Shown here: positions 18,379 to 23,179 of the stretch, piece by piece
Layout: each line of letters begins with the position of its first letter
Numbering within the stretch: the first letter of the stretch is position 1
NCBI GenBank assembly: GCA_020633495.1
Contig: JACKDR010000001.1
Location: 374,105-438,104 of the forward strand
From: Kofleriaceae bacterium
GTDB taxonomy: Bacteria; Myxococcota_A; Polyangia; Haliangiales; Haliangiaceae
Reading direction: 5' to 3'
Length of the DNA: 64,000 nt
Translations under genes and position numbers: made by a program
The notes under the pieces: model-generated
Database searches by the model: none
What the model saw: the letters and a program-made list of their open reading frames with translations, nothing else
Told to the model about the DNA's origin: nothing

Positions 18379-19617
18379 TCAGCTCAGCAGCGCCGCCAGC
18401 TCGAGCAGCGGCACCTCCTCGCCCGGCTTGTCGGCCTCGTTGAGCTCGGCGTCGATCAGGTGCAGGACCGCGCTGCCGCGCGCCGCGGCGCGGACGCCGG
18501 CGTGGTAGGTGACGGCGTCGCCGTCGACGATCAGCGTGCGCAGGCCGCCTCGGGTCAGGGCCGCGGCGTCGGGCGCGATCCAGCCGCGCAGCTCGGTGAG
18601 GCACTTGCGGTGGTTGGTGTGGCCGGCGATCTGGGCCAGACCGGCGGGCAGCTCGCGGGGGTGGAAGCGGCGCCGCCGCGGGTCGGTCTCCCACGCCCGG
18701 TCGACCCGATCGGCGGCGGTCGGCGGGCGGTCCGGGTTCGACGGCCGGTGATAGAGCAGCCCGCCGCCCTCGTCGGGCTGGCGCCCCGGCAGGTGCAGCG
18801 GCGCCAGATCGAGCGGGTCGAGGCGGCCGGCCTGCCACGCCGCGCGCCGGGCCTCGACCGCGGCGGCGAGGTGGCGATCGAGCGCCGCCGCCAGCTCGAC
18901 CGCGCCGGTGCCGACGCCGAGCTGGTCGACCTCGCGCGTGGTCACGCCGGCGTGGGTCAACAGCGCGGTGCGGCCGTCGCCGAGGCGCCCGGCGGCGGCG
19001 AGCCGGAACCTCCCGGCCAGGAGCATCGCCATCACCAGCGCGCGCTGCGCCTCGCCGTACGAGGCGTAGTCGCGCGCGATCAGGCCGGGGGTCGGCACCT
19101 CGGGGAACGCGGGCTCGAACTCGGCGCGCAGCCGGCGCCGGTACTCGTCGGGCACCGCGCTGGCCAGCGGCGCCAGCGCGGCCGCCGCGGCCTGGGCCGC
19201 GGCGAAGCGGGCGTCCGACAGCCCGATCAGCTCCTGGACCCGCGCGACGTCGTGGTTGCCCGCCAGGATCACCGCCTGCTGCGGGTGGTGCTCGGCGAGC
19301 CAGCGCAGGATCGCGGTGCCGTCGCGGCGGGGATCGGTGTCGTCGTGCGATCGGTAGTCGAAGTGATCGCCGATCGACACCAGCTGGACGTCGTCGGCCA
19401 GGAAGCCGTCGATGCCGAGCAGCTCGTGGGCGACCAGGACCTCGACGAAGCGCTCCAGCGAGGTCTGCGGATCGCCGATCACGCGCACCCGGGTCGGCGG
19501 CCGCGGCGGCGCCGGCCGGGGCGCCGCGAGCGGCTTGCCCGCCAGCTCGCGGGCGCGGGCCACGGTCGCGGTGAAGGTGAGGCTGATTCCGCCGCTGAGG
19601 TCCGATCGCATCGGCAT
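18379..19617 (-). CDS. Metallophosphoesterase (calcineurin-like).
   Basis: GDHFD and GNHD motifs. The true start may be downstream (GTG at VRVIGDP). Confidence 0.68.
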   Translation of the reverse strand: MPMRSDLSGGISLTFTATVARARELAGKPLAAPRPAPPRPPTRVRVIGDPQTSLERFVEVLVAHELLGIDGFLADDVQLVSIGDHFDYRSHDDTDPRRDGTAILRWLAEHHPQQAVILAGNHDVARVQELIGLSDARFAAAQAAAAALAPLASAVPDEYRRRLRAEFEPAFPEVPTPGLIARDYASYGEAQRALVMAMLLAGRFRLAAAGRLGDGRTALLTHAGVTTREVDQLGVGTGAVELAAALDRHLAAAVEARRAAWQAGRLDPLDLAPLHLPGRQPDEGGGLLYHRPSNPDRPPTAADRVDRAWETDPRRRRFHPRELPAGLAQIAGHTNHRKCLTELRGWIAPDAAALTRGGLRTLIVDGDAVTYHAGVRAAARGSAVLHLIDAELNEADKPGEEVPLLELAALLS

Positions 19618-19626
19618 TGGTAGATC

Positions 19627-21036
19627 CTACTTTCCTCCGCCTTTGGGGCGGGCTGTCGCAAGACCCCCGTTCAAACCGTGCGTGCGGATTTCCCGCACAC
19701 GGCTTACCGGTGGTCGGTCAGGGAGCGGCATCGTACGGTCGCCGGGATAGCGGACAGTCCCGCGCAAGCGGTGGAGCCCGAGGCGAACGAACTCATCGCG
19801 GGTCCAGCGCGCCATCTCGCCGGGCCGCAGGTTCCGGCCCTTGCGCTTGCGCACCAGGGCACGGAGCCGCTGCCAGACGTAGCTGTCGAGCTGATTGAAC
19901 TTCCGCGCGGCGTTGCCGGTCTTGAAGTAGTTGCCCCAGCCGCGCAGCACCGGGTTGAGCGTCGCGATCGTCTCGCGAAAATCCCGGTGACACGCCGCTC
20001 GCGGGGTCAACTCCTTCACGCGCTGACGCACCCGCTTCATGCTCCGGTCCGACGGCCAGCGCTGCAGGAAGTAGCGTCGCTTCTTCTCCGCGGCCCAGAT
20101 CCGTCCCGACATGCGCTTGTGCAGGTGACACCCCAGGAAGTCGAAGCCCGCCTTTCCGTCGGCAAGCTCGACTCTCCGGGTCTTCTCCGGGTGCAGTTCC
20201 AGCTTCAGACGCTTGAAGATGATCTTCACGCACCGTTCCGCTTCCTCGACCTTCGCCTTCGTATCGCACAGGATGACGAAGTCGTCCGCGTACCGGACGA
20301 GCGTCCCCAGGTGGGCACACTGCCTCGTCCACCGCTCGTCGAGGAACGCCAGGTAGATGTTCGAGAGCAACGGCGAGATCACGCCGCCCTGCGGCACTCC
20401 GCTGAGCATCGCGATCGCGCGCCCCTCCTCCATCACCCCGGCCTCGAGCCACATCCGGATCAGCCTCAGCACCCGCCGGTCGCTCACCCGCCGCCTCACG
20501 CGCTCCATCAACACCCCGTGATCGAGGCTACCGAAGAAGTCGTGGATATCGGCGTCCAGCACGTGGTTGCCCCCGCGCGCCCCTCGGACGCGCAGGACCT
20601 CCAGCGCCTGCGTCGCGCTGCGACCGGGCCGGAACCCGTATGAGCAGTCCTGGAAGTCGACCTCGAAGATCGGCTCGAGCACCAGCTTCGTCGCCGCCTG
20701 CACCACGCGATCGCGCACCGTCGGGATCCCCAGTCCTCGCCGTCCTCCGTTCGCTTTCGGGATCCAGCACCGCCGCACCGCTTGCGGTCGGTACGTGCCT
20801 GCGCGGAGCCGCTCGCCGAGATCCGCGATGAACGCGTCCTCGCCGAGCGTGCGGATCGCGGCAATCGACTCCTCGTCGATACCCGCCGATCCACCGTTCC
20901 GCGCGACCCGCCTCCACGCTTCCCGGAGGATGTCAGCCCTCCAGATACGGTCGTACAGCGCGTGGAAGCGCCTTCCCGGCCCTCGCTTGGCCGCCTCCCC
21001 AGACGTCGTTGCAGCCGCTGCGTGGTCGACCGGCAT
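19627..21036 (-). CDS. Group II intron-encoded reverse transcriptase/maturase (IEP). En-minus: no HNH domain.
   Basis: RT motifs (PQGGVISPLLSNIYL, YADDFVI) and maturase X (LRGWGNYF). The C-terminal ~35 codons read through domain V. Confidence 0.88.
   Translation of the reverse strand: MPVDHAAAATTSGEAAKRGPGRRFHALYDRIWRADILREAWRRVARNGGSAGIDEESIAAIRTLGEDAFIADLGERLRAGTYRPQAVRRCWIPKANGGRRGLGIPTVRDRVVQAATKLVLEPIFEVDFQDCSYGFRPGRSATQALEVLRVRGARGGNHVLDADIHDFFGSLDHGVLMERVRRRVSDRRVLRLIRMWLEAGVMEEGRAIAMLSGVPQGGVISPLLSNIYLAFLDERWTRQCAHLGTLVRYADDFVILCDTKAKVEEAERCVKIIFKRLKLELHPEKTRRVELADGKAGFDFLGCHLHKRMSGRIWAAEKKRRYFLQRWPSDRSMKRVRQRVKELTPRAACHRDFRETIATLNPVLRGWGNYFKTGNAARKFNQLDSYVWQRLRALVRKRKGRNLRPGEMARWTRDEFVRLGLHRLRGTVRYPGDRTMPLPDRPPVSRVREIRTHGLNGGLATARPKGGGK
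19662..19695 (-). ncRNA. Group II intron domain V (catalytic hairpin with AGC triad and GAAA loop).
   Basis: Matches the D5 consensus GAGCCGUAUGCG-GNRA-CGCACGUACGGUUC closely. Confidence 0.65.
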
Positions 21037-21849
21037 ACGACGGTCGGGGAGTTGGATCGCCGGCGGGAGGGGTTACCTGTTCCGCGTTCCGCGACCATGC
21101 CCTTGTGCCTGCGGCCTTCGCCGTCATGACCACCCCAGGGACCCTTCCCTCCGCCGGCGTTCTGCGGCGCCGGCCTCCTCGGTACTACGATCCCTCGGAC
21201 TTCCGCTGCACCGCGGTCGCACCGGCACTCGGCCTCCTCGATTCGCGTCGCCCCGACAAGGGCCGTGCAGACGGATCTCCCGTGTTCCGTGCTTCTCCTT
21301 GAACGCGTGCTGCGCCCCCTACCCCGGAGGGACGCGACGACCGCTTCGGATCTCGATCGTCGCGCGTGGCCTTCGCCGTGACATGAGCGGCTCGGCTCCC
21401 CCATTGTTTCTCTGTCGAGACTGCAGGCTTCACTTCATGTTGCGGCCCGCGTTCTTGCTCCCCGGTGTTCCCGGGCTCCTGACGCCGCGCTTCGGCACCG
21501 AGGATCTCTCCTCGCTCCGGCGGCCTGCTACCCGGCGCTCCGACGCCTACCGGGACGGGACTTCCACCCGCTGGAGAAGCGCAGCAAGACGCATCCTGCC
21601 CCTGCGGGCCATCGGCGTCGTCACGGCGCACCATGATCGAAGCGTACTCCCAGCTCCCGGCCCGGCGGAGGTGTCCGATCCCCGGACGAATGTGACCCGG
21701 CTTCCCCGAAAAAAGCGCGATTCAGCGCAGTTGAACCGTGTTCCTTACCTCCCGTTAACACGCCGTGCATGTGGCGGACGCGTTCGCCCGCTAGCGTCCT
21801 TTCGCGTCGGGCAAGGACCTGCATCGCCCGACGAGGAGGAGAGGAACAG

Positions 21850-23179
21850 ATGCTCACCCGCACCGCCCCCGCCCTGGCCCTGGCCCTGGTCGCCGCGCTC
21901 GCGCCCGACGCCAGCGCCCAGCCGACCAACGACCCGGCGACGCCGACCCCACCCGCCGCGGCCGCGCGCGCCGCTGCCGGCGCCCGCGCCGGCGGCGGAC
22001 GCCACCGCGACCGACGCCGCGCCCGCGCCCGCGCCTGAGGCCGACGTCGAGCCGGCGCCCGAGGCCGCGCCCGCCCCCGCCGAGGTCGCGGTCGCCGACG
22101 CCGACGTCGCCGACGACGCCGCGGTCGCCGCCGCGCCGGAGGCGCACTGGTACGACGCGCTCATGGTCAACGGCTTCGCGTCGGTGGGCTTCACGCTCAA
22201 CACCAACCGGCCCGCCGACGACGCCAACCAGCTGCGGGTCTTCGACACCGAGGACAACGCGTTCAACGTCGACGTCATCGAGCTGGTGGTGCAGAAGCCC
22301 GCCGCGGAGCCGGGTCAGGCCGGCTTCCGCATCGACCTGACCGCGGGCTCGGCGATCCCGGCGGCGACCGCGTCGGCCGGCCTGTTCCGCGACGCCGACG
22401 GCGTCGCCCAGGACGTCGACCTGCAGCAGGCGGTGGTCTCGTACATCGGCAACGTCGGGGGCAAGGGCCTGCGGCTCGACGTCGGCAAGTTCGTCACCCA
22501 CATGGGCTACGAGCTGATCGAGGGCTACGACGGCTACAACGACAACTACTCGCGGTCGATCCTCTTCGGCTACGCGATCCCGTTCACCCACACCGGCGTC
22601 AAGCTCGGCTACCCGCTGACCGACAAGATCTCGGGCATGGTGATGATCGCCAACGGCTGGGACAACGTGAAGGACAACAACAGCGGCAAGACGCTCGGCC
22701 TGCAGCTGGCCGGCAGCTTCGACGCGGTGGCCGCCTACCTCAACTACGTCGGCGGCCCCGAGCAGGACGGCGACAACGGCAACCTCCGCCACGTCGTCGA
22801 CCTGGTCGCGACCTACGCGGCGTCCGACGTCCTGTCGTTCGGCCTCAACGGCGACTACGGCTACGAGGCCAACGCCGCCGGCATGGGCGACCAGGCCGCG
22901 ACCTGGATGGGCGCGGCGCTGTACGCCAAGTGGAGCGCGTCCGACGCCGTGTCGCTGGCGCTGCGCGGCGAGGTCTTCGACGACGCCGACGGCGTCCGCA
23001 CCGGCGCGGCGCAGACCGTCTACGAGGGCACGCTCAGCCCCTCGGTGAAGCTCGGAGACAACGTCGTGCTGCGCGGCGACGTCCGCTTCGACCGGTCGTC
23101 GGTCGAGTCGTTCATGACCTCGGACGGGACCTCCAAGCAGCAGGTCACGGTCGCGCTCAACGCCATCGGCGTGATGTAG
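21850..23179 (+). CDS. Outer-membrane beta-barrel (porin-like) protein. Apparent frameshift near 21970-21990 between the signal peptide and the barrel.
   Basis: GAGGAGGAGAGG RBS. Signal peptide (MLTRTAPALALALVAALAPDASAQ) is in ORF 21769-22038. The barrel portion (alternating hydrophobic strands, aromatic-rich) is in ORF 20567-23179. Confidence 0.5.

Follow-up and report, generated by a model that had tools for sequence, protein, structure and literature searches.

A full-length, ORF-containing group II intron that lacks an endonuclease domain (En-minus) occupies positions 21631..19615 (2017 nt, GUGCG ... CUACCAAUG) on the minus strand of the 64,000-nt stretch of DNA that was analyzed (hereafter the window). 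The intron sits exactly between the native ATG (21634..21632) and codon 2 (CCG, 19614..19612) of a metallophosphoesterase gene and ends in an AUG of its own (19617..19615), in frame with the host ORF. The best explanation as a whole, with a probability of about 80%, is that the intron inserted directly after the ATG of a gene with leaderless promoter architecture (TACGCT, 6 nt, ATG) and that it is a member of a widespread En-minus lineage specialized for start codons of this kind. The terminal AUG stands in place of an AY 3' end and, being in frame, would let unspliced and spliced RNA encode an identical protein.

The intron is delimited by Rfam matches, by homology with relatives that ends at 21635 on one side and at 19609-19615 on the other, and by covariation of the exon-binding sites. 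Several elements of the initial annotation are confirmed: the intron start (GTGCGCCGTGAC at 21631, minus strand), a full-length group II intron that reads in the direction of the phosphoesterase gene, and the dismissal of the plus-strand ORFs across it as antisense artefacts. The 5' end (GUGCG, 21631..21627) fits GUGYG and is kept in relatives. The domain I core (21573..21435, minus strand) matches RF02003 (group-II-D1D4-4) over the whole model length with 81.2 bits (gathering score 49), the domain I-IV core gives a partial RF02005 match (46.6 bits), and the covariance model RF00029 (D5/D6) scores domain V at 43.4 bits, above its gathering score of 40. The whole 5' ribozyme comprises 595 nt, with the domain I core starting at intron nt 59, and a comparison of relatives places only a variable hairpin of 0-45 nt between nt 12 and 57. 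The domain V sequence is found once in the window and lies, as annotated, inside the RT ORF that ends with TAG 19629..19627, but its coordinates are 19705..19673 and not 19695..19662; its pairs are kept in 56 relatives. Similarly, domain VI does contain the bulged branch-point A (19621, position -7 from the 3' end) but is not a short hairpin: both the MFE fold and the consensus fold of 56 relatives give a 50-nt helix (19668..19619), and 7-22 sequences per pair show compensatory changes. Multi-copy genomes exist, and the window intron is a predicted self-splicing mobile element.

The RT/maturase ORF (21036..19627, minus strand, 469 aa, stop UAG 19629..19627) was correctly identified as En-minus with YADD and RGWGNYF motifs. 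It matches RVT_1 and GIIM in Pfam and TIGR04416 in NCBIfam (401 bits), among solved structures it comes closest to group II RTs, and no HNH/En match was found in Pfam or NCBIfam, with approximately 70 aa following domain X. Relatives occur in the Myxococcota, Acidobacteria, Planctomycetes, and Bacillus (a B. thuringiensis plasmid match shows 48.5% identity).

The window copy is 99.5% identical to a copy at a different site (L077), which is intact, and the insertion is therefore recent. Pairwise alignment with L077 reveals four small deletions within 21195..21000, at 21195/21194 (G run), 21050/21049 (C run), 21022/21021 (2 nt), and 21001/21000 (G run). Because of these deletions the reading frame that the host ATG opens into domains I-III breaks after 149 codons (21634..21185), compared with 626-674 codons in intact relatives, and a conserved internal AUG (GGGCAUGG, 21098..21096, present in 97% of 35 relatives), the probable canonical start of the intron-encoded protein, is thrown out of the RT frame. 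The window copy thus appears to be either decaying or mis-assembled. That it is a dead remnant, with ribozyme and RT inactivated by the indels and the phosphoesterase translated from the intron-terminal AUG only or not expressed, is a serious contender at somewhat less than even odds: the deletions also stand out against a second relative (L001), one of them affects a conserved ribozyme segment (GUCCGAGGGGAUCGUAGUACC), and the displaced AUG 21098 points in the same direction. However, three of the four deletions fall in homopolymer runs, the porin gene in the window (21769..23179, plus strand) is frame-split as well, and L030 is deleted in the same G run, a pattern typical of assembly error; the copy otherwise remains nearly identical to an intact one.

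In 37 out of 67 relatives, including L077 (670 codons), the host ATG opens a single ORF that crosses domains I-III and continues into the RT, and gene calls of 625-680 aa are present in public databases. Introns without any stop codon are found for frame 0 only (37/67, compared with 0/67 each for frames 1 and 2; stop totals 61, 328, and 461), and the first intron base and the RT0 motif are separated by a multiple of three nucleotides in 47 out of 64 introns, with 15 distinct lengths. The N-terminal ~200 aa of the long ORF gave no match in Pfam or the PDB. Codon periodicity is almost nil in the domain I-III part (entropy 0.65/0.69/0.74 vs. 0.60/0.48/0.97 in the RT), and protein-level selection therefore does not act on the upstream peptide itself. 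Frame 0 is interrupted in sub-lineages, by a single UGA at codon 70-71 (Planctomycetota type) or by an RT in frame +2 (actinobacterial type). High G+C content and RNA constraints might accordingly have produced the long frame as a by-product, with translation of the RT starting in every case at the conserved internal AUG in domain IV. The conservation of this internal Met, the lack of codon periodicity, the interruptions in several sub-lineages, and the many gene callers that place the start internally (491-575 aa) speak for such a by-product, which is nevertheless an unlikely account: the absence of stop codons is confined to frame 0, the spacing to RT0 keeps to multiples of three over the 15 lengths, and the exceptions look organized, with either a single conserved UGA or a stop-start overlap (AUGGUGA).

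The contacts between intron and exons were identified by covariation across the family. EBS1 (5'-CAUG-3', 21385..21382, minus strand) is located in a domain I hairpin loop of 9 nt and comprises only 4 nt, CA(U/C)N, that pair with N(A/G)UG. Its partner in the window is IBS1 (CAUG, 21635..21632, minus strand), whose last three bases are the native phosphoesterase ATG and the end of the 5' exon, as indicated by the EBS1 pairing and by the single ATG of an empty site described below. Among 55 distinct family cases, 52-55 show EBS1 pairing at exon positions -1 to -4; the fourth EBS1 base covaries with exon -4 in all four Watson-Crick combinations and CAC variants face GUG targets. Pairing at exon positions -5 and -6 is at chance level (20/55 and 22/55), and EBS2-IBS2 pairing was not detected, as no alignment column covaries with exon -5 to -16. 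EBS3 (G21319 on the minus strand, following GGGGUA) has the first base of the 3' exon as its partner in 44 out of 45 distinct introns, with all four Watson-Crick types. An EBS/IBS-compatible 5' exon and a domain I structure (the RF02003 match) are thus both present and, as shown by the covariation, the intron RNA reads just five target bases.

The target sites were compared among ~70 relatives from many phyla that were chosen by RT similarity only; these sequences are phylogenetically non-independent and counts refer to unique 5' flanks (n = 62). The flanks end in ATG (47), GTG (14), or another triplet (1), and 56 of the 62 sites carry a TANNNT box 6-8 nt before the start codon, a leaderless type of promoter architecture. 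The gap measures 6, 7, 8, or 10 nt in 31, 20, 5, and 1 sites, respectively, and all other offsets together account for 6 occurrences. By comparison, TANNNT at a gap of 6 or 7 nt precedes 0.37% of all ATG/GTG triplets in the window, and the box at these gaps is absent from all 97 CATG|C sites of the window. In the host gene the box is TACGCT (21646..21641, minus strand), a -10-like hexamer of the same class as in the family sites and in intron-less orthologs (L070-L074), and a putative promoter element. A simple sigma-70 scan of 21500..21950 did not find a full promoter, and the host gene is presumed leaderless from its promoter architecture. The only terminator-like hairpin in the window lies 84 nt upstream of the insertion (21738..21718). 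The target genes are diverse and do not represent one housekeeping gene, and a start codon led by an SD sequence is nearly absent among the targets (1/62, L103). Internally deleted copies (L007, L042, and L063) also reside at TANNNT/start-codon sites, and in L110 a second intron is inserted after the terminal ATG of the first, at TAGGGT-CTACCA-ATG. Furthermore, a sister clade is inserted in the stop codon of ssb, which is regenerated (T|GA), and follows the same logic at the opposite end of a gene.

An insertion at any N(A/G)TG|N site, with the association with TANNNT and gene starts arising purely from later selection (other copies being lethal, silent, or quickly lost) and the -10 element going unrecognized, is possible but improbable. 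The five bases read by RNA pairing are compatible with such selection, RT expression requires a promoter and perhaps a start codon so that only suitably placed copies propagate, and the variable hexamer spacing (6, 7, 8, or 10 nt) is more easily reconciled with a flexible RNA polymerase than with a rigid protein-DNA contact. In contrast, the box is found in 57 of 62 independent sites against the low background, copies dead on arrival (intergenic or in dispensable genes) should linger and yet are almost absent from a sample drawn by RT similarity, the internally deleted copies occupy the same kind of site, and SD-led starts, which would be equally good for expression, account for the single case mentioned above.

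The position of the intron within the host gene is supported by uninterrupted sites. The 3' exon consists of the metallophosphoesterase ORF from codon 2 (IBS3 = C19614) to the stop codon (19614..18379, minus strand; homologs carry PF00149 or are so named), and the N-termini of orthologs (MGMRSDLSGG and MPMRSGSSGG) align from residue 1. The empty site of an intron-less syntenic ortholog, L070, reads TAGGCT-TGTCACC-ATG|GGCATGCGCTCG with one ATG only, while the window exons once ligated read TACGCT-TCGATC-ATG|CCGATGCGATCG; further intron-less orthologs (L071-L074) also have an empty site. The expected spliced junction from the assigned boundaries is ...TCGATCATG|CCGATGCG. The boundaries are fixed because EBS1 covaries with exon -4 to -1 and EBS3 with the base after the terminal AUG. 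A shift of up to 3 nt, in which the 5' ATG is intronic and the 3' ATG belongs to the host, or in which both ATGs form a target-site duplication, is very improbable. Cyclic permutation over the ATG...ATG repeat does yield identical DNA and two introns (L003 and L089) have GTG as both triplets, but 12 sites combine GTG at the 5' junction with ATG at the 3' end, and the shifted register is rejected because the covariation of EBS1 with exon -4 and -3 (CAC with GUG, four Watson-Crick types at -4) and of EBS3 with the base following the 3' AUG would then not exist. Moreover, the sister clade end CUA-CUCUAC aligns with CUA-CCAAUG at equal length to the end, and retrohoming does not produce a target duplication.

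The assigned 3' end, which follows from the 3' ends of relatives and from the EBS3 covariation that sets the splice site after the AUG, departs from the initial annotation. The intron ends ...CCAAUG (UG and not AY) throughout the clade, whereas the sister clade has the canonical ...CUCUAC, and the end ...GGAUCUACCAAUG is conserved in ~70 relatives before unrelated genes. The terminal AUG precedes, in frame, diverse real genes: domains were identified in 17 of 20 tested and many of the Pfam matches begin at profile positions 1-3. The intron end had been placed at 19600, which is 15 nt too far and stems from a weak Rfam D6 alignment; the true end is G19615. The insertion had also been assigned to the 5' side of GGAGGA, 20-40 nt before the start codon, but GGAGGA (19638..19633) and the ATG 19617..19615 are both intron sequence, and the claim that splicing is needed for normal expression is doubtful, since it does not follow given the in-frame terminal AUG. 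The underlying model of an intron in the 5' leader, with a host ATG 19617, a host GGAGGA ribosome binding site and obligatory splicing, gains what appeal it has from the window alone, where GGAGGA-N15-ATG followed by a 412-codon ORF resembles an ordinary gene start, and from the 3' end left ambiguous by the D6 alignment, but it is refuted by the empty site, where GGAGGA and the second ATG are absent, and by covariation (EBS3 with the base after the AUG, and in D6, which puts the branch A 7 nt before G19615), as well as by the recurrence of the same end ahead of unrelated genes, and retains a negligible probability.

In the window copy the RT stop codon UAG and an AGGA motif are located 12 nt and 7 nt before the terminal AUG, an arrangement that would allow reinitiation or SD-led initiation at this AUG. 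The SD-like AGGA is only partly conserved, as is a TANNNT-like sequence at the 3' end (strict TANNNT in 15/78, xAxxxT in a further 35/78). Both lie within the D6 helix and could be explained by RNA structure.

No description of this start-codon lineage was found in the literature. The lineage resembles the organellar "core creep" ORFs, in which the intron ORF is extended 5' through the ribozyme in phase with the upstream exon and host expression signals are borrowed; yeast mitochondrial aI1 and aI2 are examples of such exon-fused intron ORFs. It differs in that the upstream exon provides only a start codon and that the fusion is broken in the window copy. Core creep has been described for organelles and we know of no bacterial case. 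As summarized in PMC12584367, the nearest known case is the IIB1 clade (Michel et al. 2007 Biochimie 89:542; Avi.groEL and EcKTE56.groEL), whose introns lie within or adjoin start or stop codons and which differs in defining features. Insertion of Avi.groEL changes UAA to UAG, and in both cases the translation signal is preserved. [quoted passage not shown] An En-minus RT and a short IBS1 (3-4 nt) with IBS3 are shared with group IIC, although these shared properties are not proof of membership. Since exon pairing is short in both, specificity would need a second target feature that is not read by RNA base pairing. Group IIC introns use sites downstream of terminator or attC hairpins, whereas the window family inserts after start codons behind a -10-like box, and no such hairpin was seen in the 5' flanks of the family. 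The window family also has a larger ribozyme and an EBS3 coordination-loop arrangement, and the window intron (GUGCGCCGUGACGAC and UCUACCAAUG) deviates from the class C boundary consensus (5' GUNYGCCNRGCAUGG, 3' CCUACYCGAU; PMC4028801). The architecture of RT plus X without D/En is shared with the En-minus classes D, E, former F, and g1-g4 (Toro and Martinez-Abarca 2013, PMC3552965); mentions of a start codon, ATG, or initiation are absent from the searched text and legends of that study.

As part of the best explanation, the element is inferred to rely on the host promoter for its transcription and probably on the host start codon for translation of its RT, by analogy with core creep, and to keep the insertion harmless through the replacement AUG, with the same host protein made from spliced and unspliced RNA. 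The -10 box would be recognized other than by RNA pairing, through the intron protein or the promoter state, or be imposed by selection after insertion. A more detailed mechanism is tentative and somewhat short of an even chance. In this mechanism, the element would home to position +3/+4 of the target transcripts by combining 5-nt RNA-DNA pairing with recognition of the promoter (its -10 element or its opened state), host-driven transcription would give it a 5' exon of 3 nt, the RT would be translated by read-through from the host start codon, and the replacement AUG would serve as a built-in repair. For a transcript that starts at the A of the ATG, the 5' exon would measure 3 nt and exon ligation should be inefficient. 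If the mechanism is true, the lineage, together with the ssb stop-codon sister clade, would represent retroelements that target translation signals and not sequences.

A scan of the window at the Rfam gathering thresholds returned two matches on the minus strand, RF02003 (group-II-D1D4-4; 21573..21435, 81.2 bits over the full model) and RF00029 (domains V and VI; 19707..19600, 43.4 bits), and an Rfam E-value scan added a partial D1D4-6 match on the same strand (21422..21321). The minus strand also carries a 469-aa RT/maturase ORF (21036..19627) that matches RVT_1, GIIM and NCBIfam TIGR04416 (401 bits). Domain searches that included NCBIfam found no endonuclease domain in this ORF, and a lookup of the exact protein matched no record. 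The matches to domain I and domains V and VI, together with the En-minus RT, therefore confirm the full-length, ORF-containing, En-minus group II intron of the initial annotation. That annotation held up in part: the intron is real and the string assigned to domain V is correct (it occurs once in the window), but its coordinates were off by 10–11 nt (19705..19673), and the position and consequence of the intron were misread.

The Rfam alignment of domain VI was poor, and relatives were therefore collected by RT similarity (69 genome loci, 80 metagenome loci, and annotated plasmid copies). The 3′ end that the Rfam alignment implied, at 19600, was rejected because it requires a 32-nt insertion and two non-canonical pairs; it is also contradicted by the family alignment and by EBS3. 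In the closest copies (88%, from Kofleriaceae/Haliangiales MAGs) nucleotide homology ends at 21635 and at 19609-19615. All clade members share a 5′ end, GUG(C/U)G directly following ATG or GTG, and a 3′ end, ...(G)GAUCUACCAAUG, beyond which the sequences are unrelated and readable as protein N-termini; at 21631 the minus strand of the window reads ...GGGAGTACGCTTCGATCATG|GTGCGCCGTGAC... When 56 D5-D6 segments were folded to a consensus, domain VI formed a helix with compensatory changes at four pairs (in 7-22 sequences) and a bulged A seven bases before the intron end. In the window, domain VI lies at 19668..19619 (minus strand) with the branch A at 19621. The end CUA-CCAAUG aligns base for base with the canonical CCUA-CUCUAC end of a sister clade, a separate set of relatives found in ssb stop codons.

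EBS1, 5′-CA(U/C)N-3′ in the family, is located in a 9-nt hairpin loop of domain I (CUCAUGUCA in the window; 21385..21382, minus strand). It pairs with exon positions -1 to -4 in 52-55 of 55 distinct intron/site combinations, its fourth base G, C, A or U facing C, G, U or G and the CAC-type EBS1 (L003, L089, and L133) standing opposite GUG; pairing at exon positions -5 and -6 is at chance level (20/55 and 22/55). In an unbiased scan of every alignment column in the first 600 nt, one column alone, the base following GGGGUA (G21319, minus strand, in the window), pairs with the first 3′-exon base; this EBS3 pairing is found in 44 of 45 distinct introns and comprises all four Watson–Crick types. 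No column of these 600 nt covaries with exon positions -5 to -16, and the column scan found neither an EBS2 nor any intron column that pairs with the -10 box, so that the target bases read by the intron RNA are only N(A/G)UG|N. The covariation of EBS1 and EBS3 therefore places the 5′ splice site after the ATG at 21634..21632 and the 3′ splice site after the AUG at 19617..19615. As far as sequence covariation goes, this proves an intron of 2017 nt (21631..19615), with a predicted ligated exon junction of ...TCGATCATG|CCGATGCGATCGG.

The interrupted gene encodes a metallophosphoesterase with hundreds of homologs, mainly in the Kofleriaceae, many of which carry PF00149 or a metallophosphoesterase name. 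The best homolog (75% identity) lies on a syntenic contig (L070) that, like the window, has a divergent BBP2 porin upstream and DCC1-like and alpha/beta-hydrolase genes downstream. The uninterrupted insertion site, which the initial annotation had suggested looking for, is present in this intron-less ortholog: its start region reads GGAGTAGGCT-TGTCACC-ATG|GGCATGCGCTCGGATCTCAGC, the window exons once ligated read GGAGTACGCT-TCGATC-ATG|CCGATGCGATCGGACCTCAGC, and two more orthologs carry TACGAT-N7-ATG and TACCAT-N7-ATG. Since the empty site has a single ATG, with neither a GGAGGA nor a leader, the original placement of the intron 20–40 nt upstream of the start codon and 5′ of its RBS is wrong, and the GGAGGA and ATG taken for host signals both belong to the intron's own 3′ end. 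The divergent intergenic region holds a terminator-like hairpin followed through a T run (CGGTTCAACTGCGCTGAATCG CGCTTTTTTC; 21718-21738, minus strand), which lies 84 nt from the insertion on its upstream side and does not adjoin the intron.

The same type of site recurs across the family, which is common in the Myxococcota, Planctomycetota, Gemmatimonadota, Acidobacteriota, and Actinomycetota and is represented by at least 3 copies in a cultured host, Nannocystis pusilla Na p29. Of the 62 unique 5′ flanks, 47 end in ATG, 14 in GTG, and one in another triplet. A TANNNT hexamer precedes this final triplet with a gap of 6 nt in 31 flanks, 7 nt in 20, 8 nt in five, and 10 nt in one, all remaining offsets together accounting for six occurrences, and a G is frequent two to three bases ahead of the hexamer. 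As a background, TANNNT stands at a gap of 6-7 nt before 0.37% of all ATG/GTG in the window (75% G+C) and before none of the 97 CATG|C sites in the window that match the intron pairing. Three internally deleted copies that lack most of domains I-III (L007, L042, and L063) still lie at TANNNT-N6/7-GTG sites. Leaderless genes of Actinobacteria and Deinococcus have this architecture, with a -10 box 6-7 nt ahead of the start codon A/G and no SD, and the target genes of the family are probably leaderless as well. A sigma-70 consensus scan of 21500..21950 detected no promoter; the scan demands 9 of 12 matches including a -35 box and is therefore uninformative for TANNNT-only promoters.

The terminal triplet of the intron is AUG whether the target start is ATG or GTG, with the exception of three introns that end in GUG (L003, L089, and L103). 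EBS1 is CAC in L003 and L089 and CAU in L103; of the three CAC introns, which pair only with GUG starts, two (L003 and L089) end in GUG and the third is L133. Possibly EBS1 and the terminal triplet are coupled, or one ancestral change may be shared. The terminal AUG opens ORFs that are real, diverse genes: domains were found in 17 of 20 tested, with Pfam matches that often begin at profile positions 1-3, and the hosts include aldehyde dehydrogenase, DapA, cyclophilin, a PLP enzyme, a HAD hydrolase, PBP1, Pol X, a sigma-54 activator, M16 peptidases, an OPT transporter, and a kinase. In the window, the RT stop codon UAG (19629..19627) lies in frame 12 nt before the terminal AUG and an AGGA 7 nt before it, so that reinitiation or SD-led initiation is possible. 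A conserved SD GGAGGA as the driver of the terminal AUG was rejected: its spacing is 15 nt, and the nearer AGGA (7 nt) occurs in only about half of the family. The intron 3′ end (TAGGAT-CTACCA-ATG in the window) could itself be a TANNNT-N6-ATG promoter copy, an idea kept at low confidence because the match is strict in only 15 of 78 sites (xAxxxT in a further 35 of 78) and lies inside the domain VI helix.

Of 67 distinct introns, 37 are free of stops across the first 600 nt in the frame that the host start codon sets (frame 0), and frames 1 and 2 are open in 0 of 67 each; the stop totals for frames 0, 1, and 2 are 61, 328, and 461. The open frame runs for 626-674 codons through the entire RT, and intron base 1 and the RT0 motif are separated by a multiple of three nucleotides in 47 of 64 introns, with 15 different lengths. 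Public gene calls of 625-680 aa exist, some of them named "group II intron reverse transcriptase/maturase" by NCBI. The first ~200 residues of the long ORF have no Pfam or PDB match, and alignments to solved group II RTs start at query residue ~195-228. Codon periodicity is almost absent from D1-D3 (entropy 0.65/0.69/0.74, versus 0.60/0.48/0.97 in the RT), a negative result for protein-level selection on the D1-D3 peptide, and an internal AUG (21098..21096 in the window) is kept in 97% of relatives. The weak D1-D3 periodicity and the conserved internal AUG weigh against a simple fusion protein. Our reading is that the frame is kept open so that ribosomes from the captured start codon reach the RT, the peptide itself being unimportant, with the internal AUG as a possible second entry point. 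A precedent is "core creep", in which organellar intron ORFs extend into the upstream exon (PMC8393795). In introns of the Planctomycetota type, one conserved UGA interrupts the frame at codon 70-71 and the same frame continues beyond it, which could be read-through or a separate upstream ORF; the UGA is held in a GGG-UGA-ACC motif (intron nt 208-213 in L008, L009, L010, L114, L115, and L119). The actinobacterial type places the RT in frame +2 and has a stop and a start overlapping in AUGGUGA, which looks like translational coupling. The +2 frame is consistent over eight different lengths (L015, L075, L134, and L135; intron nt 367-384), and the ORF begun at the host ATG finishes with ...CAAUGGUGA, where its stop is overlapped by an RT-frame AUG or GUG.

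The window copy is 99.5% identical to a copy at a different site (L077; TATCCT-N7-ATG, intact 670-codon ORF), which indicates that its mobility is recent. Relative to L077 it has four deletions, at 21195/21194 (G run), 21050/21049 (C run), 21022/21021 (2 nt), and 21001/21000 (G run). Read from the host ATG, the frame closes at 21185 after 149 codons; the AUG at 21098, conserved in relatives, is out of frame with the RT, and only the ATG at 21036 opens the RT. Assembly error is as likely a cause as decay, because three of the four are homopolymer deletions, a deletion also affects this G run in another relative (L030), and the divergent porin-like gene (21769-23179, plus strand) is split over two frames. 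The signal peptide of the porin (MLTRTAPALALALVAAL...) is in the 21769..22038 frame and its beta-barrel part in the 20567..23179 frame, the ortholog in L070 being PF07642 BBP2; the split suggests indel errors in the assembly or a real frameshift.

Beyond the observed insertion point, 4+1-nt pairing, terminal in-frame AUG, -10 box association, and open frame 0, the intron would be transcribed from the host promoter with a 3-nt 5′ exon. The RT would be translated from the host AUG, the internal AUG, or both, and the host protein would be made after splicing, which would restore a leaderless mRNA, or by initiation at the terminal AUG of RNA that is still unspliced. Five paired bases correspond to about 1.5 candidate sites per kb, and the -10 box must therefore be recognized, whether by the RT or via the state of the promoter, or else imposed by selection. 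Recognition of the -10 box is favored over selection alone, at odds of roughly 60:40, because non-promoter sites hold almost no dead copies and start codons led by an SD are nearly unused (1 of 62 targets). Both views fit a tandem of two family introns (L110:1935-4055) in which the second (GTGTGTCC) begins right after the terminal ATG of the first, whose end, TAGGGT-CTACCA-ATG, is the site of the second insertion. On a linear replicon of Embleya sp. NBC_00896, the 5′ flank TACG-GTGCGTCC-ATG|GTGCGTCCTGAA (L075:1875-1890) has the initial 8 nt of an intron and an ATG ahead of a full copy, possibly as the footprint of recombination between tandem copies.

Copies from Streptomyces NBC_01450 plasmids (16 places) were rejected as family members, being of a different intron type with another 3′ end. 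IIC introns have short pairing in common with the family but target hairpins and have other boundary consensus sequences (PMC4028801). The nearest described introns are a IIB1 clade at start and stop codons of housekeeping genes (Michel et al. 2007, summarized in PMC12584367), the hallmarks of which, as outlined in that summary, are a 300-700-nt insertion in domain I, a CL1 RT with an endonuclease domain, and a canonical EBS2. The window family has none of these three features, and the likeness looks like convergence, not membership. The introns of the sister clade (L022-L041 and L141-L156, e.g., L035:2340-2380 and L024:2340-2380) encode an RT of 40-47% identity, begin with an unusual GAGYGG, and have the canonical 3′ end CUCUAC (CCUACUCUAC). 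Their site is within the ssb stop codon, ...DDDIPF-T|GA (GAT GAC GAT ATT CCG TTC T|GA), where the first two intron bases regenerate TGA; the ORFs upstream are PF00436 SSB and one DUF3127. Back-to-back copies also occur in this clade (L034, L050, and L142). Judged from their sequences, both clades target and restore translation signals. No description of the start-codon or ssb stop-codon behavior was found in the full-text literature, coverage of which was incomplete so that an earlier account is possible, and the window feature is a member of a widespread, apparently undescribed group II intron variant.

Bacterial group II introns are thought to persist in intergenic DNA or mobile elements, or by clean splicing, and we know of few specialized targeting strategies, namely terminators and attC (IIC) and the groEL stop codon (a IIB1 clade). 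The strategy of this family differs, in that it combines the first codon of probably leaderless genes, five paired bases, a -10 box that almost always adjoins, and a substitute start codon. If confirmed, it would be a testable case of a retroelement that recognizes a promoter or start site and, as far as we know, the first bacterial exon-fused intron ORF. For annotation, it would mean that the true start of the host gene is 2 kb upstream, the apparent RBS and ATG being intron, and that the 625-680-aa "RT/maturase" calls open with a host codon. The introns would also be a natural marker of leaderless promoters in uncultured phyla and a possible design for neutral, promoter-proximal targetrons.
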